64,000 bases of DNA from Pseudovirgaria hyperparasitica. Its lineage: Eukaryota. A model generated the notes under the pieces. That model ran no database searches and was not told the origin of the DNA. It saw only the letters and a list, made by a program, of their open reading frames with translations. Position numbers and translations under genes: made by a program. The stretch lies in NCBI GenBank assembly GCA_010093815.1, contig ML996568.1; one strand, written 5' to 3'. Shown piece after piece: positions 1-59,246 of the stretch; within the stretch, counting starts at the first letter, position 1; every line of letters starts with the position of its first letter.

Positions 1-1023
1 CCATCAACATCCACAACCTCCCAATATTCTGCAGGGGTACTGTCCGGTTCCGCAACTTCTTCGGGTGCCTCGGTCTTCTCATCCTCCTTCTGCCTATTCT
101 TCGCGATGGCTGCCTTTTTCTCAAGGGCCTCCTTGCGCTTCTTCTCGATGGCCTCTCTTCTCTTCTTTTCTGACTCCGTCTCTTCTCTAACAAGCTTGAG
201 AGACCCCTGCTGGTTGCCAGGCTTCACGTCAAAAATGAGACCACTCTTCTTGACCTTCTTGCCTGCATCAAGTGATACTAAGTATTTGTGCTCTCCTCGT
301 TGTCCACTAGAAACCTTGGCTGCTTTGATGAACCTCAGAGGTGCCTGGATCGCGCCAGCTGCAGCCTCTAACGCTGGAAGTAGGCTCTTGTTGGGGTGGT
401 CTACGGCCAATCCGCCAGCTTTTGCCTTCGCGGCCGCATCTTCCGGGCTGATCGAGGTACATTTTTCATAACCCTGTACGCGTTGAACGAACAAGGAGCG
501 CCCTGCCTCGGGAGTATAGCTTGCTGCCTTGGTGGATTCCCCGAAAGTGCTGTAAAAGTCGAAGAGGTCTTGGTTGCGAACATCGACTTCGTGTGGGTAG
601 GGATTGGGCTCGTGTGACTCGCGCAGCTTGTTGATCGTCCGACTTCTGATTTCGAAATATTGCTATCAGACAGTAAATATCAATTTGAAAATGTGATCGG
701 AATGCATCACATTCGGGTTCAGGTCTGCCTCATTGACGGCGCCAGCAGCTTTCTTAGCAGCAGGCTTTGGTGGGGCAGTAGCAGCCTTCTCAGCCTTCTT
801 CTTTTCGTTCTCCCGCTGCTTCTGTCTCTTCTTCACTGTAGATCTGAAGTTAGACAAAGCCTACTGGAATTTCGGTAGACTTCTCACATTCACTCTTGGA
901 GACACGCTCCCCTGTAACCTCGTCGAGCAGTAGCTTGGGAGCACCTTCAGCAGCAGACTCGCCAGTATTTCCTGTGACACTGCTAACCACAGCCTCCACT
1001 GCGTTCTTGACAGATTCGGCCAT
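1..1023 (-). CDS. KRS1: Cytosolic lysyl-tRNA synthetase-like protein, 5' part (runs off the window edge)
   Basis: ATG at 1023; introns 836-887 (GTGAGA..CAG) and 663-710 (GTGATG..TAG). Spliced product MAESVK...LLLDEVTGERVSKSELKKRQKQRE...[28 protein letters not shown] matches the eukaryotic LysRS N-terminus. The frame stays open to base 1 but is non-canonical after YPH. The catalytic domain is outside the window. Confidence 0.75.
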
Positions 1024-1041
1024 GATTGTTAGTCGATTAAG

Positions 1042-1113
1042 GAGTCAGGAATTCTGATCTCGAGAGGTATTTGACTTGCGACAACTGACTAACTCATACT
1101 ACCTTCGAGTCAT
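1042..1113 (-). promoter_or_regulatory. Two Gcn4/CpcA-type elements (TGACTC) upstream of the LysRS gene
   Basis: GAGTCA at 1042-1047 and GAGTCAT at 1107-1113 (reverse complement TGACTC/ATGACTC), within 90 bp of the ATG. Fungal aminoacyl-tRNA synthetase genes are typical cross-pathway-control targets. Confidence 0.45.
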
Positions 1114-1629: not shown

Positions 1630-2724
1630 ATGATGGAGATTCACCACGGCACAGCACGAGACCTTGACGCCCAATGCGACCACGAATACGTCCACACCCT
1701 GTTCAGAGGCCCCAGAGCACCGCCGTCTCAGACTTCCCTTCATACATCTAATCCCAGCGACGACCCTCCAAGTTACGTGGGTGACTTGAAGGAACACCGC
1801 GATTTCCTAATTGACTTTGATGCTCCTGGCCCTGCTTCTGCTCCGCCGCATTCGCCCACGACCACGGGCAGCACCTCCCTGTCAGCATCATGGGATGAGT
1901 ATGCGGCCTTTTCACTCTTTCAACTACCACGAGAACTTCGAGATTTTATCTACGGGCACGCTCTAACCCCATCGAACCATCGTGTTCTGGTTGAGATCGA
2001 CCGCGACCTGTCACCCCAACCCGGCTACAACCGAAGTCCCCACAAGAGGTGGGATCCAAAGATTTGCTACGAACGTCGACCTCGAGAGTATCTCAGTCCG
2101 GCATTGCTACGCACATGCAAGAACGTCTACAGAGAGGCGCTTCCGATACTATACTCTAGCGCCATCTTTTACCCAGTTAACAACCAAGCGCTGTTACCCC
2201 TATTCCTCGAGCGACAAGGAGCACTCGCTCGGCGTTCCATACGATATATGCGTATCGCCACAACTTTCTCGCTGCCCTTGTCTCAAAATCGCTTCCACTG
2301 GGCCGTCACCTGTGCGCAGGTTGGCAGTCTAGCTTCTACACTGAAAAAAGTCGAAGTCTTGTATACAAGCAAGCCCTCAGAACGACCGTGTCTGCTTGGC
2401 TCCGGATCAGATACCGAGGCGCTGATGAAGCCTATTATCAAGCCATTGTGTAAGATACAGTGTCCGAAGGTCATCGTATTCTCACCAGTCGACATTTCGG
2501 AGGCCCAATCTGCTATCGAGGAACGATTTGAAGGCTTGATGAGGACTGGTCACGAACTGGTAGCTCGAGATAAGAAGGGAGCAATAGAGCGTGGCGATGC
2601 TAATGAGATGGAGAAGCTCTGCAAGGAGTGGGACATAGCCAGTGATGTCAGTTCTTTGGATGGATCAGACTGGGAGGACGTCAAGAAGGACTTTGACAAG
2701 ACTCACAACACAGAGTCCGACTAG
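1630..2724 (+). CDS. Fungal F-box-like domain protein (LPxELRxxIY family)
   Basis: 364-aa ORF with FSLFQLPRELRDFIYGHAL and ALLRTCKNVYREALPILYS, typical of the expanded fungal F-box-like/2EXR-type proteins. Confidence 0.7.
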   Translation: MMEIHHGTARDLDAQCDHEYVHTLFRGPRAPPSQTSLHTSNPSDDPPSYVGDLKEHRDFLIDFDAPGPASAPPHSPTTTGSTSLSASWDEYAAFSLFQLPRELRDFIYGHALTPSNHRVLVEIDRDLSPQPGYNRSPHKRWDPKICYERRPREYLSPALLRTCKNVYREALPILYSSAIFYPVNNQALLPLFLERQGALARRSIRYMRIATTFSLPLSQNRFHWAVTCAQVGSLASTLKKVEVLYTSKPSERPCLLGSGSDTEALMKPIIKPLCKIQCPKVIVFSPVDISEAQSAIEERFEGLMRTGHELVARDKKGAIERGDANEMEKLCKEWDIASDVSSLDGSDWEDVKKDFDKTHNTESD

Positions 2725-6227: not shown

Positions 6228-9200
6228 CTATTCCAAGTCCTGCTCGCCCCGCTCACTCGCCCGAAACCCTTCTCTTCGAATGGCAGCCATTAAGCTGTCC
6301 GCCTCGTGATATTCTTCCATTGATCCAAATGCGTAACTCTTGAGATCGGTAAGCATGCTTTTCAGTCGATCTATAATGCTCTTCGGCCGCAAGATCGGGC
6401 GCTGCCTCTGTGAGCTTGAGGCAGCTGAGTTCGCTTCCACCTCTACATGACCTAGTGCCTGATCTGAGCTACGCTTACGCGTCTTCTCGTGTTGCGGCGT
6501 GACCTGGACGTGACTCAACCGTCTTGACTCTGATGCCGTTGACTCTACTACTGATGGCGGCTGTGATGGGACCTCGCTGGACCCGTCAGACGTCAGATCA
6601 AGGGCAGCTTCAAGTTGCGACGAGGTGAGTTCGGTCATCTGTTTGCGTGGACGTCCAGGGCCGCGTCTGCGTTGCGTTTGCGATGATTGGGAGTCGTTCG
6701 CAAGTCCTGTGCCCTGCCCTCTCTTAGGTCTTTTCGACGCGGCAGTATTGATGACACCTTCTCCACTTTTGCGCTTGCGAGATGCTCTCGTACTGGACGC
6801 AGATGCATCTTCTACCTGCGAAGAGCTAGGCGCTGCGAAACTGTCCTCAATCTGGCTCAAGCGCTCCTCGTCCGTTTCTGTCTCAGCCTCTGCTTTGAAG
6901 GCCAAAGGTACAGATGACTCGTTCTCACGCCTGATGGTCACCTCCTCAGCGACAACAGCTGTATCAAGCTCGGGCGATGCGTCGACAAATTCCGCTTCAT
7001 CAATATCGTTGTGTTCGAGACATTCGGTTGGGGCATCTACGAACACATCGCTAAAAGTCGTGGGAACGGGCGGTTGAGGACTTTGGCGTTCCTTGCGCGA
7101 CGTTATCTCGTTATTAATTTGTGCATTAAGAAGGATGTCCGCATCTGAGCTAGTAACATCGGGCATTGTATCATCAAGTCCTTGATCGAACTCTCCGTCA
7201 GGAAGGTCAGCTTCTTCGTCTTCAAATGGAGCGAGACCATGGGCTTCAAGGGTGGAGTCGTTCTCCCCGATGTCAATCATGTCTTCACGTTCTTTGTGGT
7301 TGTGGGATCGATGCATAAAACGGTCCTGGGCGAAATCGCTTGAAGAATGAAGAACCAATTTACTGATTCTCGGTACAGGTGACTTCGGTGGCGATGAAGG
7401 AAGCTCCGTGGCCATCCTCCTTTGGCGTCCGGAACTCGTAGAACGAGACCTTTGTCCGGGCACAGGTGTTGGCGAAGATCCTACAAACACTTGGGCTTCA
7501 AGCTTCGCGGTAGGAGTTTCCTTTCGCGCTGGAGGGGTATTGACGACTCTTTTAGGCCGATTCCTGGGAAGTATATTCAATCGAGAGTTATCAGGGCTCG
7601 CCTCACTTAGTGGTATCGATATTGCTGTACTGATGTCGGGAAACATCATAGCTGCTTCTTGCCTTTGCTTTGCCAGCACCTCTTTCTGATTTTCCGTCAA
7701 GAGTTGAGAGCTAGCATCGTTTCCGCCTAAAGGCGACGAATCAATTGCTGCAAATTGTAGCTGCGAGTCCTCGTGACGAAGGCGACCTTTTGATGCCTTC
7801 CGGACAGGGGTGCGACTGTGAGTTCGCATGGGGGATACTTTTGGAGAATGTCTTGAGAACGCTGGTGATCTAGTCACAGCTAGATTCCTATTCTTCTTGT
7901 TAGGGCTTACTGGCGAGCTCATCAGAGAGTCGTCTTGGGAGTCTAGGAAAGATAGGGGGACTATGTCCTCGTCGGCGCTGATGTCTGGAAAAGATGGAAC
8001 TTCGATGTCAAGAACTCGTCGCAGCCTTTCAATGACGGGCACTAATGGGCTTGGATAAGCAAGTGTGTCCTGTTTTCCAAACGTGTCGTTCCAAAATTCC
8101 ACAGTAGCATTGACGATCTCGCGTCGACTACTAGAGAACCCAGCTATTAATAGAATGTCCAGAGCAGCGAGTGTTGCTGTGTTTTTCTGTGGCAACGCCC
8201 TGAATGTTAAAATTACAGTTCGCCACAGAGCAATGACCTATATGCAATTAGCTCATGATCCTGATACTTTCGCGCCTATATGACCGCTAGTTCTCATCTG
8301 GCTCGATGTAAAAGACGAGACAAGCGTACCTCGTTAACAATATCACGACTGTCAGCACTGCTGTTGACAAGGCGGCGATCCTTATCTTGGATCCAAACAC
8401 TGAGAGAATCCTGATTCTTCCGCAGGAACAGTCCTGCCAGAGACTGAGGACAGGTCTCGATGGCCTTACGAAGTTCATGTATGACCGATTGCACCGTTTT
8501 CTTGTTGATAGAGTCAAGACTGTTGTAGGCCAGAACAAGCGCGAGGTGCACCATAGTGTATACACTATGATACGGATCGAAGTCTGAGTTGCGGTGGAGA
8601 TGACTTGAAGAAGTACCCAGCGCTTCATGGCTCTGTCGTAGAGCACGCTGGCTTTTGGGATGGCGATTATACTTGAGAATCATTGTAGCCATGTGGAGAA
8701 AAGTAACTCTAGTCAGAGAGCTTTTGTTTGGAGCCAAAGCTGACATAGGCTCTGAAACAGCGATTGTAACTCCCGCATCTCCAGAGTCGCGTGCCACAGT
8801 CTCAGAAAATGCTTCGTAGAGATCTTCCCAAGCTGGTTGCAACTGCACGTCATCCTGATCCACACCCGCCGACAGAATTTCGACAATGAAAGCGAAAGAC
8901 TTGCCCGGAACAGAGATACCATCTGGAGGTGAACGCAACGTTGTTGACGTTAGATCCGCGAGGTAATGCCACAGGGCCTGACTGATGGGTCTTCCCTTAG
9001 CCAAAGGCATCATGATACTTGTGCAATCCCGGAGAAGCTGAACTTTAGCTTGTTTCATGTTCCTTGAGTTCAGACAGGTAGCTATCATTCGTTGTATCAC
9101 CGCAAGGCGACTCTGGTCCCCTATGCTGTCAGGCCCAACTCTTAGGATCGACTCGAGAAGGGATAGCAATGGCGAGTGTAGCGAAACCTGGAGCCGGGAC

Positions 9201-11341
9201 CGGTGGGAAGGTGTCGGAGCTGCTTCAAAGTCTGCCTCGCCATTCCGAGACAACAATCGCTCGCTGAAGTACAGAGGACCAAGACTTGTCATTGCAGATG
9301 AGATGAGGAATCCGAATTTTTCCATCCACATGTCGCCATTGCGTCGGTGGTTTGAAAGCGATTCAGGGTAATCATTCCAGAAGCTATGAAACATGTTCGT
9401 GACGTGCGCAATAGCATCTTTCAGCTCCATTGAGACTGTGACCTCTTTAACACCTGCTTCAGCCAGTGCTTGCGTAAACGAGAGCCACATATCCTTGACG
9501 GAAGTCGATTTGTTGATAGTTGGTTCCCATGGACCGCTATTTAAGCAAAGGCGAATGGGTTGGAGGACCAGCGCAATATTCTGTCTGATCCACTTCGAGT
9601 CAAGATGGGGAAGGTCTTCGAGGGTCGCTGATGATGGGGTTTCGAATACTTTGCCTTCGTTCCAGAACTTGATCTGCCCACGCATCAAGAGTCTATGAAG
9701 AACCTGGGTTATCACTGAAGCGTCGAGACCAAATTCACCGTCAGTAGGAAAAGCCATTTCGCTCACAAAGTTTCGCCATGAATGACAGTGGGATTGAGTC
9801 GGTAGGCCTGGCCGCAAGGAGTAATATAGCAAAGTAGCGTACGCCATTGTGGCATGGGTCCGGCCGTTAGAAGTGGTCTTCTCCGTCTTGTCATCTTGAA
9901 ACCAAACGCTGATGACCTTACGAAGGAGATTTGCCATGCTATCAGACACACCGTCTCTCAGGATCACGACGTACACAAAGCGATTCCACGCAAGAACAGC
10001 CTGCTTTCGTACATTATCCTCTGAGTTCTTGAGTACTTTTTCGAACACCCGTAGCCATGACTTTAGATGGCGCCAGGTGTCAAGATGCCCCGGTCTTTCT
10101 TTCATAAGTAATACCACGATAGACCATATTTGAGGGACCTGGAAGGCTTCTTCTTGTTTTGCGGCCATCTGAGTCAGGCGTGCCACGATGTAATTAATAT
10201 AAGACTTCCCGACCTTTGATTCGTGGTCGAGAATAGCCGAAGTTGCGATATGAGTATGCTTCAGAGATGAGAATTCCTTGGCAGCAAGAAGGCCGACATC
10301 AATAGCCCGTGACCGTATTTCTTTGATGCTGCTGACCATTGCGTGAAAGACATTTTCGAGCCAGGGTGTCAGTCTGCTGGCCATAGACTGGGGCGATTGC
10401 AGAATCAATCGTCTGTATACATGGAGACGCACGATGACCATTGAGTTGCCTTTTACTCTATCATGAATCGGATTCAGGATTTCCAGAAGCCTCTCGACTC
10501 TCTTGTCTGTCATGATGTGAGATGGAAACTTTTGGTGTCCTACCAAATTCAAATAGTGATTGGTGAACGCTTTGGGTGCATTTGAATCTGCCAGTATGGC
10601 GATGGCACGCTCAACAACAAACTCTCGAAAGTCATCGTCCATTGCGTTCGCTGCTTGTGGGATGTGGAGCAGAGCAACAGTGAATTTGATGGCCTGTGTT
10701 ACCACAGTCATGTTCATGACACCTTCGGATCCCATGTCTCGCTCAATGTACCCTAGAAGTGTAGGTATTCTTTCGACTAGAGCCTTCACACCCCCAGGGA
10801 CCTCCTCATAGTGTTTCAAGGCGCCCTGGAGTACAACATAGGCATCTCCACGTGCATCTCTGCCCTCTTCAGCTAGCTGATCGATCACAGCTTGCAGCAT
10901 TTTCTCCACGCTTTCGAAGTCGTGAGCACTCTGTGCAGCGGCAGGAGCAATGTTCTTTGTGTTCTCAACCAGCGGACTTGGCTCAGACGCTTTTAGTATA
11001 GATTTGAGCGGGGTTCCTGCTCGAGGTAGAGCTCTCAGATTAGAGGCGTTAGGATGATTGTGGTATGTACTCCATCCAGAGATCTCGACGCGTTTCCGCC
11101 TCTTATTGCTGTTCGAAATATGATCACCGCCAGAGGAAGGAGGAGTGAATTGTAAAGTCTGGGCAGTAACATCCATAGAGCGGGTACCGCTCGATTGTTT
11201 GATGTCAAAGTTGTCCTCGAGAAGTTCGATTGCTTTATCGAGCTCTACATCTATGTCGGGTTGGGGACTGGTGTCTCGTGGTGGAGTCGGTGGTCGTGCT
11301 TGAAGGGAACTAAATCGCGAATTACTGGAAGAAATGGACAT
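6228..11341 (-). CDS. RIF1: Telomere/replication-timing regulator Rif1
   Basis: ATG 11341; one intron 8238-8329 joins the 1029-aa and 655-aa ORFs in frame (..IVNE|VIALWR..). N-terminal ARPPTPP, RVxF-position and KSILK PP1 motifs, then a HEAT-like Rif1_N region (WLRVFEKVL..AVLAWNRFVY, YYSLRP, FEAAPTPSHR) and a disordered C-terminus with LRHEDSQLQFAAIDSSP. Confidence 0.85.
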
Positions 11342-11494
11342 GGCTGCAACTCCAACACAGATTAGAAGCAAAAAGAAAGACAACGGTCATGAATGCATCG
11401 TGTGTGTCCCGAGACAGCGAGAGGATGCAGAGAGTATCCACGGAGATATTCGAGGACGACGGCCTCTAGCGCTGAAGCGATATACTTCCACTTT

Positions 11495-12506: not shown

Positions 12507-14220
12507 ATGGCCTCCATGATTGAAATGAAGTCCAGTAGCGGACAGGGTGAGTCGTAGTCTCAGGCGCGGCTGTGCGTTGCGGGAGTTGGGTTGCTAATGA
12601 TGCAATATTCTAGATAAATTGCAGGAGGTAACGGAGATGCTAAATATGCTGCGCGCCGACCTCACCGAGATGAATCTTCTACCACAACGTGAGATACATA
12701 GACATATGTAGCCCTTTGTACTACAAGCTGATAAGTGGCCTGGCGTAGAGAGAAATGAAGCATTGGAGAAGCTCAAGGTTCACGGCCGGTCCGTTGAAAA
12801 CGCCGATCCAATATTCACCAAAGAGGTACGTATACTTATGTACTCCGCAACGTTGCGCATGATTCTGACGCTTTGCAATAATAGGGCATCGATACGCTGT
12901 GTCGACACGGCTTTCATAGCCCATCTACTACGACTTCCCGCGAAGCTCTCCGCTGCCTAGCCAATGCTCTACTCCTACAGACCGAAACCCGCCAAATATT
13001 CGTTGATTTGGGATTCTCAGAGAAAGTCTGCGAACTTCTGAAAGTTAGTTCACAAGAAAGTCAAAAATTCATATTCAATGGAACTCACAAAGTACAGAGC
13101 GACAACCGCGACGATGAGTTCCTCGCATCCCGCATACTATTCCTCACAACTTATGGGACGAATCTGGATTTTGAAAAACTCATGAGAGATAGTCAGTTGG
13201 CCGAGACAATAAACCAGAATATAGCACGACATTCGAAACGGTATCCCAAGTCAGGGCGACGCGCTTCTTCTATAGCGTCCCCGATGGAAGACATGGCGTT
13301 GTCCGAAACATTGAAACTGATGTTCAATATCACCAACTTCTACCCTGACTTGGCCGAGATGTTTTCGAAATCGATCGCGCATATCTTCAAGATACTTTTT
13401 CGCACTCGTATTCCAACTCCGCCCTTGCATCCGCCTGTATGTTACCTCGTCAACGCATTGATGAATCTCGACCTAGAGGGAAAGAAAGGAAGCCAGCCAC
13501 TCGCCGTTAATCCGGTGTTTCCAAAATTTGATCAGAAGCTCAACGCGGAGCACCTGATCAAAATTCTCGATATGGCCATCACTCAGTATCCGGAAAAGGA
13601 GCTAGATACAGTTGCAGCACCTGTACTGGTACTTATCCGGAGAGTGTACGAGTTCGCTCCAGACACTGTCAAACGATATATGCAGTGTTTATTATTACCA
13701 ACGGATGAGGAGAGAAACATGCCTCTCGGGCAATCTGACACACTTTCTTCCCGGCTATTACGACTATCAACTTGCCCTTCCACTCCGAACCTTCGAGAGT
13801 CTATATCTGCTATGTTTTTTGAAATTTCTGGTAAAGATGCGTCAACATTTGTCAAAAATGTTGGCTACGGCTTTGCCTCAGGCTTCTTAATGAGCCACAA
13901 TATTGCAGTACCTGAGAACGCATCAGACGCTTTCAGTAGCCAAACGGAGGGTACACCAATCAACCCGATTACCGGGCAGCGTCTTGATGCGGAAGCCATC
14001 GAGACTGGACCAGAGATGACTGAAGAGGAAAAGGAAAGGGAAGCAGAAAAATTGTTCGTCCTCTTCGAAAGGTCTGTAACTTCGATCTCCGATTCATTCG
14101 AATCAATATATCGTTTGCGCATACTAATATGTACACAGATTGAAGAAAACGGGTGTCATGAATGTGAGAAATCCCGTGGAGCAAGCTGTACAAGAAGGCC
14201 GATTCGAGGAATTGGATTGA
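12507..14220 (+). CDS. RIC8: Ric8/synembryn G-alpha guanine nucleotide exchange factor/chaperone
   Basis: Six exons. Motifs SREALRCLANALLL, DEFLASRILFLTTY, FVKNVGYGFASGFL, INPITGQRLD and EMTEEEKEREAEKLFVLFERLKKTGVM..NPV; stop TGA at 14218-14220. Confidence 0.92.
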
Positions 14221-14707
14221 GATTCAGCTCTCTTCAGACTCTCTTGTGCCTAGGCAGCATTCGGCGATTGAGGCGAAGCATGGCTTAAGGTTCCGGCAGC
14301 TGCAGGCGTTGGTACGGCATTGGCGGCGTTTCGTTCATCTATCACTTGTACTATATATTATATATGTACGAGACGCGTCGAGAAATTGCGCTGAGACAAG
14401 CAATCGACAAGATTGGAGGTGGTAGTGCTGAATTCCTCCGTTAGAGTTGTTGTGTACGTTGGTGTTATGTGTCTAGGTAGTGTAGTCACGCCGGTGCCGA
14501 AAAGCTAGTTAGCATGGATAACCCTTGATGCGGCATGGGAAAGATCCAAGTCAGAGTTGCCTTCTTGCCAAAATAAACCTCAAAACACTGCGCTTGGTCC
14601 GCATACGGACGAGTCATCGTCGCCATGCTAACATCTTCATTTGGAAGGGTTTCTGGAGAGGTTTGCACTCTACTATATTCCCTGACCTACGCACGCGACT
14701 CCAAGTG

Positions 14708-16924
14708 ATGGCAGAGACCCCACCGCAGCGCAACCTTTCTCTGGTACCCTACTTACCTGCAGAATCGCGGCAGATCGTTTTGTAAGTATCATCTGTATAT
14801 GCGCTGGGAGTTTTTGAACTTTGGCTGTAGCATTGGACTGACATTGTTCATCTCTCTAGGCGCCATGGCTCAGCAGTTGTCGTGTTTGATCAGCGATCAA
14901 AACAGCTCTCGTTGAGAGATGCTTCTCGATCTGATGCCGTGGAGCTTTCCGACTGTCCATACTGCCATCGGCCCTTACGAGAAGAACCCGATCCAGAAGT
15001 GTATCACGATAACGAGCATGAAGCCGATACCACACCTGCGCCGGGATTTGTCAATCCAGAGTACTTCCGCATGCTCCAGTCCAGCGCGCCGGGCTCTACC
15101 ACTTCAACACGTCCACCTTCACCAGTTAAGAGGATCAGGCAACCAGTGGTGGAGAGCGATGACTACACGAGAACGCCCCCTGCTGAAGCTGAATTCATTG
15201 GAAGTGCGCCTGCACCCCAAACTACTCCAGCGTCACAAAATATCTCCACGGAAGCTTTTAGTCAAGGCTATTTCAAAACGTTCTTTGTCGAGGAGAAAGA
15301 GCTTGGACGAGGTGGAAAAGGTGTAGTCCTATTGGTTCGACATGTTCTTGATGGTGTCTCTTTGGGGCATTTTGCTTGCAAGCGAGTGCCTGTCGGTGAC
15401 GATCACGAATGGCTTCGCAAGGTTCTGATTGAGGTACAAGTGCTACAAAATCTTTCACATCAGAACCTAGTCTCATATCGGCATATCTGGCTTGAAGATT
15501 GGCAGCTCTCGTCATTTGGTCCCAGAGTTCCCTGCGCCTTTATTCTGCAGCAATACTGTAACGCTGGTGATCTCTACAAATACATCGCTGGGCCCACTAA
15601 AACCACTCTTTCTCCACAAGAACTCAAAGACCGTAGAAGGCGACATTCAAAGGGCCAATTAGAGTTTCCTCTGGACTCTACTGTACCTAAAAGATTGACT
15701 TTCGACGAGATCGTGAGCTTTACAAGAGACATTACTGCGGGTCTGCACCATCTTCATACGAACCGTTACATACATCGCGATCTCAAGCCCAGTAATTGTC
15801 TACTGCAGCGCACCGGTCTGCAATCATATAAAGTGCTGCTAAGTGACTTTGGAGAGGTCCAGTTGGTCAATGTCGACCGCAAGTCGACTGGAGCGACAGG
15901 CACAATTTCATATTGTGCCCCAGAAGTGCTCCGGCGTGACCTAAGCTCCGGAGCCCTTGGCAACTTCACAACGAAATCTGATATCTTCTCACTTGGGATG
16001 ATCGTACACTTCATGTGTTTCAGTAGATTGCCTTATCGCAACGCCGACGGTCTGGATGAAGACAATGAAGATGTCGATCAACTGAAAGCGGAAATCGTTG
16101 AATGGGCTGGTTTTGAAGAGGATCACAAGAACTCAAGAGCATTGCCAGAACTTTTATTCAAGTTTCTGAAAAGGTTGCTCTCTCTTGAGCCAGCACAACG
16201 ACCAAATACGTTGGAAATTCTCAAACAATTCAATCGCGGTACAAGCGCAGATGAACTCCCTGACTTTTCCGGATCTTTTGTAGCGGAGGACATGGAACCT
16301 CGCATCTCGTCTGTAGATAGCCCAACAGGTCCAAGTCGTCAAAGTTCTGCACGAAAAACACCGACAAGGTCAACATTTGTCAGACCAGGACCGTCTAAGC
16401 TGCGGCATTCCACCGTAGAGCCTTCAAGATCGCCAAGTCCACCTTCAGATAACTCTGTCGCCGATAGTACCACATGTGGACCGGAAAATTCGGGAGTTGT
16501 CCTTCGTACTCATAAAGCAACGTCTCGCGCAACCTCACCGCACCTGCCCGACGAGGGCCCACAGCGACTTTTGCTCCCTCCACCACCTACTTTCACTGGA
16601 CGAATCTACCGTTTCCTCGAGATACCTATCGTGGTGTTCATTCTGAAGACCTCGCTATTCCTTGCAAAAGCTGTTTCAATCCTAAATCCGTGCTCGACGC
16701 TGAGCCCGAACCCTTGGGTCACTTATCCGTTACTTTGTGTAGCGGCCCTTGATTTCTCGTTCCTCAAACCACATGATGGGACGTCCTTTGGTATTCTCAA
16801 TGGATCGTTAGTCCTTTTAGGTGTACATGTCGCTGCTCTCGTGGTTGCGACCTACTTTGGTCTTCTGTGTAGTATCAGACTGCCAATCTGGCATGAAGGT
16901 CCCATGTACACCGACGACATGTAG
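14708..16924 (+). CDS. IKS1: Iks1-family Ser/Thr protein kinase with C-terminal hydrophobic segments
   Basis: First exon MAETPPQRNLSLVPYLPAESRQIVL spliced to RHGSAVVV. CPYCHRP and FVNPEYFRML family motifs; kinase motifs LGRGGKGVV, ACKRV, HRDLKPSN, DFG and APE. Confidence 0.9.
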
Positions 16925-37939: not shown

Positions 37940-38083
37940 AGCGGCTAAGCTACGGTTTGCATCACTTCTGGGTCGTCGTCGAAGCCCCTAATAGCTTTCC
38001 AGAGGTCGACTTTTCACTAGAATTTCATGAGATACTTCCTGGGTAATATTTCAGAGTGCTCCTTCGAGTGCCCATAGTACGAC

Positions 38084-39677
38084 ATGCCCAATACGGACTC
38101 CAGTCCCGTACGGAAGCGTCCTGCTGCCAAAGCTGACCCGCCAACTGGCACTGGCAACCCAAACAAGAAACGAGCACGTTCCCCTGCGGCGAACGGAGAG
38201 CGGTCAAGATCACGCTCGCAATCACCGCCGAGGAAAAGACCAGCAGCCAGAGCTGTGCCTTCGGGCGACAATGCAAAAAGGAAGCGTGTACACGAGAACA
38301 GACAAGAGCGTCGGTCACGTTCACGAACACCTCCGAGAAAGCGGCCTGGGGCAAACGCCGCAATCAGTGCCGCTGCACGCGAGGAAGCAAGACAAAGGCG
38401 ACAAGAACGAGAACGTGAGGATGAGCAGAGGGCTGCCGCGGCAGCAGCAGCACGCGGCGTTCATGATGTTGTAAGGCAACACTACAATGCAGTTCCGGAG
38501 CGAGGAAGAGAATGGCGCAAGACAGACAGCAAAATCAAAGGACTACGTAGCTTCAATAACTGGGTCAAGAGCACCTTAATTCAAAGGTTTTCGCCGAATG
38601 ATGGCGGCGACAGACGCGAAGGAATCCTTGTACTGGATATTGGCTGTGGAAAGGGTGGCGATCTCATGAAATGGAGCTCAGCACCACAAAGAGTAGACCT
38701 ATACGTCGCCGCAGATCCGGCCGAAGTGTCCATACAGCAAGCAAGAGACCGATATCGAGAGATGTCGAGAAAGCCACCCCGCGGCCGCAAGCTCTTTCAT
38801 GCCGAATTTTCTGTGAAGGACTGCTTTGGCGAATGGATGGGTGACATACCGATCATACAGGAAGTAGGCATAGATCCCAATGTTGGCCCCGGCGGAGGAG
38901 CAAGCAAATTTGCGACGAGCGGATTCGATGTGGTTTCGATGATGTTCTGTATGCATTACGCATTTGAAAACGAGGAAAAGGCACGCATGATGTTGAAGAA
39001 CGTATCAGGCGCTCTCAAGAAAGGTGGCAGGTTCTTAGGAGTCATCCCCAATTCAGATGTTCTATCTCAAAAAGTGGAAGAACATCACAAGAAGAACTCG
39101 ACTTCGGGAAAAGACGAACCACAGGATAACGATTCGGACGATAACTGGGATCCAGAAAAGACTCTCGACGAACCAGCACCTGCAAAGGCTCAAGAAGATG
39201 GTGAGGTCGAAGATTCAGGTTTCGAATGGGGCAATAGTATCTACCGCGTAAAGTTCCCTGGCAAAACACCAAAAGATGGAGTTTTCAGGCCGCCTTTTGG
39301 GTGGAAATACTTCTATTTTCTAGAGGAGGCGGTGGAGGAAGTCCCCGAATATGTGGTACCATGGGAAGCGTTCCGAGCGTATGTTGGCAATGAAATCTAC
39401 AGTGAAAGGTGGCTAATATCAGCAACAGTCTGGCAGAGGACTACAATCTAGAGCTGCAGTACCGCAAGCCATTCCCGGAGGTTTGGGAAGAGAGCAGACA
39501 CACCCCCGAGTTCAGCGAACTGGCGGAACGCATGCGTGTTCAAGAGCGTGGTTCTGGGAGACTCCTTGTCAGTGAAGAGGAGATGAATGCTTCCGGTATG
39601 TCAAATCCGTTCATGTCCCGCTTTACGCTGACTCCTTGGCAGCTTTCTACCATGCCTTTTGCTTCTACAAAGTGTGA
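38084..39677 (+). CDS. ABD1: mRNA cap guanine-N7 methyltransferase
   Basis: VRQHYN, SKIKGLRSFNNWVKS, VLDIGCGKGGDLMKW, FCMHYAFE and VPEYVVPW; two 3' introns; ends FYHAFCFYKV*. Confidence 0.93.
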
Positions 39678-55594: not shown

Positions 55595-58500
55595 CTATAG
55601 AGCCCCAAACCCCTTGGAATAGCTCAACGCCAGCTCCAGCTTCTGCCGCATCTTTTCCTGCCCTGCATACTCCGGCAGCAGCAACTTGCCAAAACAAGTA
55701 CTACTCGTCGGCAGCATCTCCGAGTCGCCTCCGTTCCGCACAATCGCAAACATCATGCTGCCAACCCCCCCGACCGGCACCCTATCACTCGCCGTCACAA
55801 ACTCCAGTAACTTCGCCTTCTGCACATCGTCATACTCCAGCACAATGTTCCAGAACTGTGCGATGGTAGGGTGGTCCGCCGCATATCCATCTTCATATTT
55901 CGCAACACACTTAAGCTCATTCATGTCGATGTACTGATATCCCTCAATCACTTTGCGCAGACCGACGGGGTCGAAAAGCGAGAGAATGGTCGGGTCGAGA
56001 CACCTCAGGAAGCCCTGACGGAATGCATGGAGCTGCGGTGCGACGGACTGGTATACGAGCCAAAAAATATAGTCATTGACGAACTGCGCTCGAGTGTCGT
56101 TTGTCACCAGAGGAGCCTCGTCAGTTGATCGAGGGTCCACATACGTGCGATCGTTTCCTTCGTACACCTTGTTGAGTACCTGCAGGCGGTCTGTACGTGG
56201 ATTGGTCTGGCTGCTTGCCGGGTCAAGCATGTTGACGGTGATTGTCTCGCCAAAGGCGTCAAACGTGAATTCGTGAGAACCGCCGTAAATTTCACTCACA
56301 TCGCCATCCTCCCAAGTCAGTAGCTGGTGGAGGGACCTCGCGAGATCTGGCCAGCCGTCCTGCAGTAATGACAAACATGAATGTGTCGTACTCAAGTCTA
56401 ATAGAAAATAGTAAAATACGATTGGGAACGTCACCGGTAGCGTGATCCCGTTGTATACGGCCAGGGAGAATAAGAGACCAATGAGTTCGCAGTGTGCTAA
56501 AGAGGCCGGAGACGCTGGTTTGAACCATGTCATGCGTGTGTGTGGATCAGTAGTGAAAATTCCGTTGTCAGGGTTAAATGCTTCTGCAAGAGCTACGTGG
56601 AAGAATTCTAGCGAAACACCGCCCTGATCGACGCCATCTTCACCCTCGAGAGCGCCAATGCGTACCTTAAGAGGTCTCAAGAGTTGGGATTCGCTCAAGT
56701 GCCAAAGCTGGTTGAAACTGTCTTCTAATGCGTGGTTTCTGCGAACATCCAAGAGTAGATAGCGGGATAACAGATCCTTGAAAGCTGAGTGCCATGGTGA
56801 ATGGTTGGGCCGCGCTAGCACGTCCAGCATCTGATTAAGACAACGAGAACGTTCCGCTGTCTCATATGTACTGAACATTCTCGAATAGTTGAAAGTCCGA
56901 AAGAGTACCAATAGTTCCTTGGAGCTGTAGAGAAAAGGATAGTTGAGAACATGTCTATGGTTTGGAGTAGGAATGTGTCTTGCGAAGTGTCCGGGAACTT
57001 TAACCTTGTCCAGATTGGCATAGAAATAAGGTATGCGAAAGAGTTCAGCAGTCAAACCAAATTGATCGACCGGTTTCTTGTCGTACAGTATTTCGTCTGT
57101 CAGGTCGGGCATTCGAGGACGGTACCACGCTAGATTCAAACGTCAGCACACGTACCTGATAGACTCATAGATGGAAATACCCATTTCGTTCATCATGTCA
57201 ATAGCACCACCTACGACATTCCACCTCTTGATCAGCGGTTCTTTGTCCCAGTGAGTCACGCAGATGGTCTTCAGCCATTCCAGCCACACAGCAGACACGG
57301 ACCAGCCTGGTCCATCGTGCTCTTCTGGGGTATCCGGCTGACAGTCGATAATCTCACGGCGACACTTCTCTGCTTCTTGAAGATACTCCAAGACCATACG
57401 CATGAGATCAAATGCGGTATTGTTACCTTCAGTCCCTTCAAGTGCGTTCAGGATCTCAAAGAAACAACGCCGTGCCGAGATTGCGCGTATCAATCTCTCG
57501 GCCAATCTTAACGCGGGCTCATATTGCATCGCATCAATTATCTCTATCAATGACTTTACAAGCGGTCTTGGAAGAGATTTTGTTGCCGAAGCAGGTATGT
57601 GAACACCATGAGACCGTTCTCGAACTAGTGGCCACACTGATGGGGAGCCTCTGGGCACCTGAGATGTCAGAGCATGGATGCAGATGATAATGACATATGC
57701 CGCTTCACAATCAGGTATATAGCGAGGGCCATCAGCCGACTTCTTCGTATCAAGACGTGCTGTGTGGTTTTTACCGCGATCTCCATAAACAGACGTCTGA
57801 GGGGTGCGTAAACGAGGTTCTTTACCGTCTACAATGATCTCTGGCGGCGGTCGAAAGAGAGGTTCCAACGCCTCCCAAAGACAATCGAAGATGAAAGCTC
57901 CATTGATGCGAGACCATCCTCTAAAAGCACTCTCGAGCTTCGTGGGATTTAGATGAGACAGTGGAGACTGAATAAGAGGACAGCCACGATCGGCAAAGGA
58001 ATGCAAAAGTCTATCTATGTCGCTCAATGATCGTCTAAGAAAGATCTCTGCTGCCGCGATAGTAGGGTCTGGTGCCTTGAAGTAATTTTGAGAGTATGGA
58101 GTCATATATCCACGCCAAAGCGCTTTGTCCAATCGTGAAGACGACGAAAGCAAGACCTTTAACTTCTCCATGGTCGCGCACGTCAACGTGCGAGGTGGTA
58201 TGAACTTTTCGCTTCCGTGCCGTCTAGGTGTAGGAAGCTTTCTAGGTGTGTCCCGAAATTCCCTGCTAAATGATGACTTCATGTTGTCCGAGGCACCGCC
58301 TGCTTCAGAGATCCCATGGTTAATGCCCACCTTGGTCGATGCGAGTTCGCTTGGGAGCTTGAACCGCAGTGTGGACTGCTCACAACCAAGTCCGTCATCC
58401 AATGAGCCTTTCTGTCCAGCAGGAAGAGCCCCATCAGTATCGGACACCCTAATATTTCGCTGTTCCAGTATATCTTTCTCTTCTTTGTGAAGCTTTAGCT

Positions 58501-59246
58501 TCGACTGAGTCTCATCATTATCCACCGGAATGAACTGCGAGCAATTTTGCTGGACAAATGGATTTGCATGGCTCGAAAGTTCGACAACTGGAAAGCGCTT
58601 GAAATAGAAATATATTAACGCCACTGTGTCGAACAGATTTTGGCTCAATGATAGCTTATCTAGCTGTGGCGCATGCTGCGCGTCCAGCTTCGACCAGAAT
58701 GTACTTGATTTTTTGTGTGGTGTTCCTTTTGGCTCATGCATCTGAGCCGATCCTGTGTCGTGCCGCGAAAGCCATGATGACGCATCACAACCAATATCAA
58801 ACGGGGATACGTGTAGCGCATGTTGGCAAAGGCCGGCCCCCGGATCATCTTGAGCAGCGAGATAGTACGCAAGCATACGGGCGGTGAGTACGGTCGGCGG
58901 CTTATAAGGCGTGTCTCGGACTCGTATCTGGGCGCTTTTACACATGGGAGTGGTGCAATTGCGTTTATGACATCCATAGAGGATCTGCGACATATATCTG
59001 AAACATGTTAGGCCGTTGTCAGCGTCTACGGTTCCGGTCGGCTCACCTCCGTACGAGGTACTGGAACGTGATACTCCTTCTCATGCGCTTGTCTTCAATA
59101 TCTGAGCTTAGCTCGCCATCAGTGCTATGATGTACAACAGCCGTAAGCGGTGTTGGCGCGGGGCTCATCGTTGGATCGGCTGGACTCTTTGCAGCTGATG
59201 GTCCGGCTCCGTCTGGACCATTGGTCCACGATGAAGTATTTCGCAT
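55595..59246 (-). CDS. HECT E3 ubiquitin ligase with N-terminal AZUL-like Zn motif (Mug30/UBE3A-like)
   Basis: Three exons. QILYGCHKRNCTTPMC (AZUL-like), LDVRRNHALEDS, GEDGVDQGGVSLEFF, LLEFVTASDRVP, LPTSSTCFGKLLLPEY (catalytic Cys) and terminal GFGAL. Confidence 0.88.

Follow-up and report, generated by a model that had tools for sequence, protein, structure and literature searches.

The gene at the start of the 64,000-nt stretch of Pseudovirgaria hyperparasitica DNA analysed here (hereafter the window) most probably encodes a cytoplasmic-type (KRS1-like) class IIb lysyl-tRNA synthetase (LysRS) that carries a lineage-specific, translated insertion of ~240 residues in the linker between its N-terminal helices and its OB fold. 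Few enzymes are as constant in length as the aminoacyl-tRNA synthetases, and a transcribed orphan segment of ~235 residues shows a housekeeping enzyme absorbing a large new sequence. The case is clean and expressed: a large orphan sequence of putative function has entered a part of an essential enzyme that otherwise does not vary in length, and this was found in a single lineage. It also provides a natural test of how separable the N-terminal helices and the anticodon-binding domain are. Should the gene be the only LysRS copy, unrelated sequence would make up a quarter of an essential, working enzyme; if it is a second copy, it becomes a candidate LysRS with a new role.

The gene is located on the minus strand, with its ATG at 1023-1021, two introns and a third exon that is stop-free to the window edge. 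The joined segments 1023-888, 835-711 and 662-1 give residues 1-307 of P0001, a database protein of 851 aa flagged by the search as the window's own, with zero mismatches. The following features were assigned in and just upstream of the gene.

888..1023, minus strand: exon 1, residues 1-45 plus one base; from translation, P0001 identity and RNA-type contigs
836..887, minus strand: intron 1, 52 nt, GT..AG, 42% G+C; skipped by one contig each in runs X3 and X4
711..835, minus strand: exon 2, the lysine-rich N-terminal extension (LKKRQKQRENEKKK ... DLNPN); from RNA-type contigs and P0001 identity
663..710, minus strand: intron 2, 48 nt, GT..AG, 33% G+C; skipped by one contig each in X3 and X4
531..662, minus strand: start of exon 3, the canonical helix and then EVDVRNQDLFDFYSTFGEST, residues 88-131; the last LysRS-alignable part before the insert
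1..530, minus strand: the portion of the orphan insertion that lies in the window (residues 132-307 out of ~132-371); open frame and contig cover
75..176, minus strand: K/E-rich helix, residues 250-283; the sole confidently predicted element of the insert (pLDDT)
15..38, minus strand: TPAEYWEV, residues 296-303, resembling the conserved TPNQYFEI of the LysRS N-terminal helix; weak significance in profile alignments
1024..1074, minus strand: 5' UTR as far as the contigs reach (X3 contig to 1074, X4 contig to 1008), which cannot set the true start
1042..1047, minus strand: TGACTC element inside the 5' UTR
1107..1112, minus strand: TGACTC element upstream of the transcribed region

P0001 is a member of the LysRS family by each sequence criterion tested except the length of the linker. 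On TIGR00499, the NCBIfam equivalog model of lysine--tRNA ligase, it scores 568.7 bits against a cut-off of 427.6, with residues 370-826 matched to profile positions 54-494 of 496. The OB fold (PF01336, 35.1 bits, cut-off 27) was found by Pfam at 373-457 and the class II core of the D, K and N enzymes (PF00152, 285 bits) at 476-824; both the OB and the catalytic parts lie outside the window and are read from the P0001 gene model only. The core contains EVETP at 518, FRNEG.DLTHNPEFT at 575-589 and GG.GMGIDR at 796, which we take to be class II motifs 1-3. In the last of these P0001 reads GGFGMG, with W at that position in at least 90% of 45 aligned sequences. On the N-terminal side, the lysine-rich extension and the QYFEIRS...PYPH helix of KRS1-type enzymes were both found by alignment to 44 fungal LysRS and to the PDB LysRS structure 7f6w, residues 88-131 being alignable to residues 2-43 of the latter. 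For the product of exon 2, an AsnRS_N-type match over residues 28-76 was also obtained, which is weak and does not reach the cut-off (E 0.007). A first-pass annotation of this DNA had considered a remodelled anticodon domain; the domain proved to be ordinary and simply displaced, the OB fold and the class II motifs both resuming past the window edge in P0001.

The insert comprises ~240 residues (132-371), a net gain of 232, and lies in the linker that joins the second N-terminal helix to OB strand 1, where according to the alignments no strand or helix is interrupted. Inside the window it accounts for 176 codons; a further ~195 nt (~64 residues) lie beyond the edge and are known from P0001 only. 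The unbroken frame to the window edge that had been described earlier, together with the peptides quoted from it, was reproduced by minus-strand translation of 1-665. The point of departure from the canonical sequence had been placed near base 590. The departure is real, and its onset lies ~20 residues later: EVDVRNQDLFDFYSTFGES (the EVDVRNQDLFDFYSTFGEST region), made up of the ~20 residues that follow PYPH, aligns with the canonical KFxV..DLxxFxxxY helix of LysRS, and unalignable sequence starts at about residue 132, which is window base 530. The segment after PYPH carries the changes K112E and F113V in P0001, both at positions that are otherwise invariant. The earlier figure of ~200 codons devoid of OB motifs needs to be revised, as the insert is longer than this and the motifs return at residue 372 (EMRIGARIYTMRSAGSNLVFYDIR ... 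HLRRGDIV), past the window edge. The suggestion of a large novel insertion before the OB fold was sound, since the OB fold and the class II core follow the insert in P0001.

The size of the insert was also evident from comparison with structures and with other sequences. In the best solved-structure match, 7f6w, P0001 residues 82-121 correspond to chain residues 2-43 and residues 371-826 to 59-514, and between the two matched stretches P0001 has 249 residues as against 15 in the crystal chain. The spacing from PYPH to FYD is exactly 50 residues in 107 of 108 stored LysRS and 282 in P0001, which thus departs from the short, fixed linker between PYPH and the OB fold (50 to FYD) of KRS1-type LysRS. 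The count was made on 125 stored proteins, 108 of which have both P[YF]PH and FYD[LIV] motifs; the 17 outside it are one non-LysRS, one protein in which FYVV stands at this spacing, 13 models truncated at the N-terminus and two full-length models that lack a P[YF]PH match. Four longer models (P0124, P0072, P0014 and P0087) also have a spacing of 50, and their added length lies elsewhere.

The whole protein has diverged, and not only at the insert. When 45 cores were placed in a maximum-likelihood tree, P0001 grouped within a Botryosphaeriales clade (97/98), sister to the Botryosphaeriaceae (88/65), on a terminal branch of 0.81 compared with a median of 0.1, a length at which placement is uncertain. 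The best LysRS relatives listed are from Botryosphaeriaceae and other dothideomycetes; all have ~600 aa and at most 74% identity over residues 376-851. Identity between P0001 and its relatives is 62-71% in the N-extension (79-95% among the relatives), 62-69% in the OB fold (73-97%) and 75-78% in the catalytic part (84-98%). A recent chimera of a fresh N-terminus and an old core therefore appears unlikely, the divergence being uniform over the three regions, and the earlier idea of a LysRS-derived chimeric gene is not supported. At otherwise invariant sites P0001 has 7 private changes and other sequences have up to 6; hence, the core is fast-evolving rather than decaying. Since the protein as a whole changes several-fold faster than the orthologues of its relatives, constraint has presumably been relaxed or altered, either in a second copy or after the insertion.

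A second copy is a possibility to be kept in mind, although we hold it tentatively: the gene would be a divergent LysRS paralogue, with a canonical copy of ~600 aa elsewhere in the genome doing the housekeeping and the insert tolerated through redundancy. An inhibitor-resistant, a regulatory or a drifting copy would be examples, and the proposal overlaps with the main explanation. It draws on the long branch inside a well-supported clade, on catalytic domains that are so much more alike among the clade members than any is to P0001, and on the loss of K112 and F113; judged by sequence, the long branch and these two losses would be equally compatible with a redundant copy under relaxed constraint and with an active housekeeping enzyme. 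Fungal annotation moreover contains additional LysRS copies under the name 'cla4-like' (P0040), and P0001 resembles them as a divergent cytoplasmic-type LysRS on a long branch. The name cla4 presumably denotes the LysRS of the cladosporin cluster. Cladosporin is described as a LysRS inhibitor in one report (PMC12721105). On the other hand, P0001 retains the N-extension, the motifs and the lysS equivalog score, its gene is transcribed and correctly spliced, and apart from the uncertainty of long-branch placement, the lineage may just have no close sequenced relative, the best match being 74% identical. On the side of the gene that is present in the window, its surroundings also differ from the cla4-type setting: these 63 kb contain housekeeping genes and no polyketide synthase or other cluster genes. 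The following neighbours were recognised by Pfam.

8294-11386: Rif1_N
12885-14288: Ric8
14831-16924: protein kinase
38078-39451: mRNA cap methyltransferase
55595-59080: HECT/AZUL ubiquitin ligase

Among the 20 long ORFs scanned between 1.6 and 63.5 kb, which represent the one side of the gene present in the window, no polyketide synthase or cluster genes were found, and the reading of a resistance gene in a cluster has no support on this visible side. Seven of the 20 have no Pfam family. Other ORFs in 3000-64000 include a POT transporter fragment, RPN7, an aminotransferase, an Asp f 4-like protein and an alpha/beta hydrolase.

The preferred reading, a KRS1-like LysRS with an inserted segment, was further considered with respect to the structure of the insert. 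An AlphaFold model of the full-length protein, made with a 45-sequence alignment, was poor overall (mean pLDDT 54), and within the insert residues 250-283 alone were confident, with ten-residue block means of 82-90. When the isolated piece was modelled (mean pLDDT 46), the same helix was the only part above 70 (blocks 74-84); the parts with pLDDT below 50 contained four strands as well as three to four helices. Neither model of the insert reaches a confidence that would give meaning to fold matches. A beta-rich part and a K/E-rich helix had been foreseen in the first-pass annotation; the helix was predicted with confidence and the beta part at low confidence only. The low pLDDT of the insert, and with it the picture of a flexible excursion, may merely reflect the missing alignment. 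Residues 246-290 consist of 33% K+R and 31% D+E. The DNA coding for this helix (54-188, minus strand) contains short direct repeats, among them a 19-nt family at 82-100, 127-145 and 151-169, which suggests local expansion of a purine-rich sequence.

Because a linker is interrupted and not a strand or helix, the insert probably loops out and is mostly flexible. The N-terminal helices and the OB fold would still assemble around it, and the enzyme probably still charges tRNA-Lys and remains a working LysRS. By analogy, the 34-residue K/E helix may be a second, non-specific RNA- or protein-binding arm; it is similar in composition to the N-terminal tRNA-binding helix of eukaryotic LysRS and may stem from a duplicated extension. 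The N-terminal extension of eukaryotic LysRS is described in one study as a disordered tRNA-interaction domain (PMC6213541). As no relative carries the insert, conservation lends no support to the view that it would be under selection or functional.

The K/E helix resembles the N-extension of eukaryotic LysRS in composition, in predicted helicity and in a weak alignment, and differs from it in being internal and additional to the normal N-terminal copy; the two are at most putative homologues. It is conceivable, though less likely than not, that the C-terminal half of the insert (~243-371) is a degenerate duplicate of the protein's own N-extension, with a K-rich helix, TP.(Q/E)Y(F/W)E(I/V) and a linker; the original extension beside the OB fold would then have decayed, its place being taken by a more recent copy upstream. 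Residues 250-303 could be aligned, with their elements in the expected sequence, to a profile built from 44 LysRS N-extensions with 11.8 bits, a score that was reached by 1 of 2000 full shuffles and, in a semi-global test, by none of 1000. However, when local composition was kept, 15 and 21 of 2000 and 15-29 of 1000 shuffles reached it, which corresponds to a post hoc p of ~0.01-0.03. Similarly, hhalign gave a P of 0.0044 but a probability of just 7.9%, and composition-corrected BLASTP gave an E of 0.28 or worse. At the DNA level, the purine-rich exon 2 matches the region better than all of the 362 control chunks from the window (0/362), whereas no relic of intron 1 could be detected. An exonised remnant of this intron, apparent by eye, was rejected, as 145 of the 362 controls scored equally well. 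The first half of the insert gave a null result (under standard gap costs 730-765 of 1000 shuffles reached its score, under lenient ones 65-72 of 1000); a triplicated N-extension, in which both halves would be copies, was discarded since the first half was no better than shuffles. In these sequence comparisons the K/E helix and the N-extension are alike mostly in composition. Internal duplication of the N-extension is a plausible, though not a proven, source of the insert's second half.

A combined scenario is improbable: it would have a neofunctionalised second LysRS, its insert derived in part from a duplicated tRNA-binding extension, in which an orphan module lies between two arms that bind RNA or protein and which has a role beyond bulk translation, such as inhibitor resistance, stress-specific charging or a non-translational task.

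The translated insertion of the preferred reading was examined at the level of transcripts and assembly, and it was found that the segment is exonic in assembled transcripts and is not an assembly chimera. Four public runs hold the stretch, X1 and X2 from sample S1 and X3 and X4 from sample S2 of a second study (P2). In X1 and X2, one DNA contig each spans 1-1700 with no differences, although these runs may be the assembly's own source. In X3 and X4, one contig each skips exactly 663-710 and 836-887 at GT..AG and covers 1-662 without a joint or a difference. The kind of these two runs is not on record, and they are taken as transcript assemblies because both introns are skipped. As their contigs splice both introns yet keep 1-662, the segment is not a normally removed intron; a spliceosomal intron is removed and its frame is not kept open, and the insert behaves in neither of these ways. 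The X3 contig has 3154 nt, of which 974 nt are in the window, leaving room for the remaining 1634 nt of the 2556-nt CDS and a 3' UTR. The RNA evidence comes from a single sample of a single study, for which two runs were available as assembled contigs; minor isoforms would be hidden in such contigs, which speak for the transcript and not for the protein. Base 590, near which a mis-assembly had been suspected, is crossed by contigs from two samples and two studies with no differences.

The composition of the segment points in the same direction. The insert frame has 0 stops, whereas 5 and 9 occur in the two alternative frames. Over the 530 in-window bases a frame stays open in 1 of 20000 mononucleotide shuffles. 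The G+C content by codon position is 0.616/0.424/0.557 in the insert and 0.595/0.412/0.588 in the N-terminal CDS, which is unlike the introns with 42% and 33% G+C, and the downstream OB and catalytic parts remain in frame after the insert. That the segment might be non-coding, whether as a long intron left unspliced, an artefact of the gene model or a chimera of the assembly, is thus largely refuted and very improbable: the insert has neither a homologue nor a confident fold, and the contigs leave room for a spliced isoform, minor or major, beyond the window, but the contigs that remove both short introns retain 1-662, the two samples and studies are identical base for base over 530-590, and the open frame, the coding-like composition and the preserved downstream frame all speak against it.

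No other protein in the collections searched resembles the insert. A phmmer search of 196 in-window residues against 1.84 billion representatives gave no credible match; the sole hit, P0008 (E 3.3e-4), was rejected as a relative and treated as an artefact, because it is a tandem-repeat protein in which eleven near-identical matches of ~25 bits each add up to the score. P0008 has 2928 aa and many copies of a 53-residue unit (EAGLKAFKDTIAAIEEIFGIDAEDMRKK..GGLALEEKIRLITAAY), which aligns with insert residues 139-190 without gaps at ~30% identity; this was judged to be chance amplified by repetition, the register being curious nonetheless. With words from residues 128-372 only, a word-index search returned P0001 alone among 7690 candidates, and a search with residues 88-307 returned P0001 and six ordinary LysRS matched via their first 24-50 residues. 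Among the 120 best LysRS matches listed, none exceeded 74% identity over 376-851 and none was similarly long by virtue of an insert at this place. A metagenome contig scan produced 385 pattern matches, of which none was confirmed as a relative. No Pfam family was found in the insert or in five alternative-frame ORFs, and a profile search of the insert for a hidden OB fold revealed neither this nor any other family. In the protein atlas, feature scores of at most 0.83 and a best TM of 0.38 were obtained, both under the search's own bar.

That the insert was captured from elsewhere or is mobile, as an intein, a transposon that became exonic or a domain from another gene, is hardly to be expected: the insert is indeed abrupt, lineage-specific and unlike its flanks, but no Hint, intein, endonuclease, transposase or other Pfam domain was found in the frames tested, no inverted repeats were detected in 1-1300 (the 3' end of the insert being beyond the window), no second copy exists within the 64-kb window, and the protein collections searched hold nothing similar apart from the repeat artefact P0008.

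In comparison with canonical fungal KRS1 LysRS, for which P0010 from Neofusicoccum parvum (608 aa) and 7f6w may serve as examples, P0001 shares the N-extension, the QYFEIRS...PYPH helix, the OB fold and the class II core, with 74% identity to P0010-type enzymes over 376-851. It differs in the 232 additional residues in a linker whose length is otherwise constant, in the loss of the invariant K and F after PYPH and in a terminal branch that is ~8x longer. In one report, the fungal LysRS listed range from 594 to 630 aa and lack an insert of this kind (PMC4301749). In a literature search covering titles, abstracts and passages, no description of a comparable LysRS insert was found. A parallel exists in the synthetases of protozoan parasites, in which a housekeeping synthetase likewise carries a taxon-restricted extra segment whose role is unclear (PMC3532385; PMC3680381). 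The protozoan cases are mostly terminal domains or recognisable modules, whereas the insert of P0001 is an internal orphan in a filamentous fungus. In the course of these comparisons it was observed that the ordinary LysRS P0014, P0051 and P0113, and one name of P0072, are labelled 'Protein kinase' by the source, an error that has been propagated in fungal and lichen records.

The two TGACTC elements that had been reported upstream of the coding region are both present on the minus strand, at the positions listed above. Neither is a full TGACTCA, and the one at 1042-1047 is inside the transcribed region, the RNA contig starting at 1074. The window contains 37 copies of the motif against an expectation of 45, which is no enrichment, and ~0.09 occurrences are expected per 150 nt on both strands; two of them near the LysRS start are at most mildly suggestive. 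A gene of the DUF7730 family (ORF 1630-2724, plus strand) is divergent from the LysRS gene. RNA-type contigs reach 1372/1386 on the DUF7730 side and 1074 on the LysRS side, and the ~300 nt left uncovered between the two genes are possibly a shared promoter. Three further TGACTC elements occur within 35 nt at 6511-6545 (plus strand), spaced by 14-15 nt and located inside a minus-strand ORF (6228-8237) that has no Pfam family.
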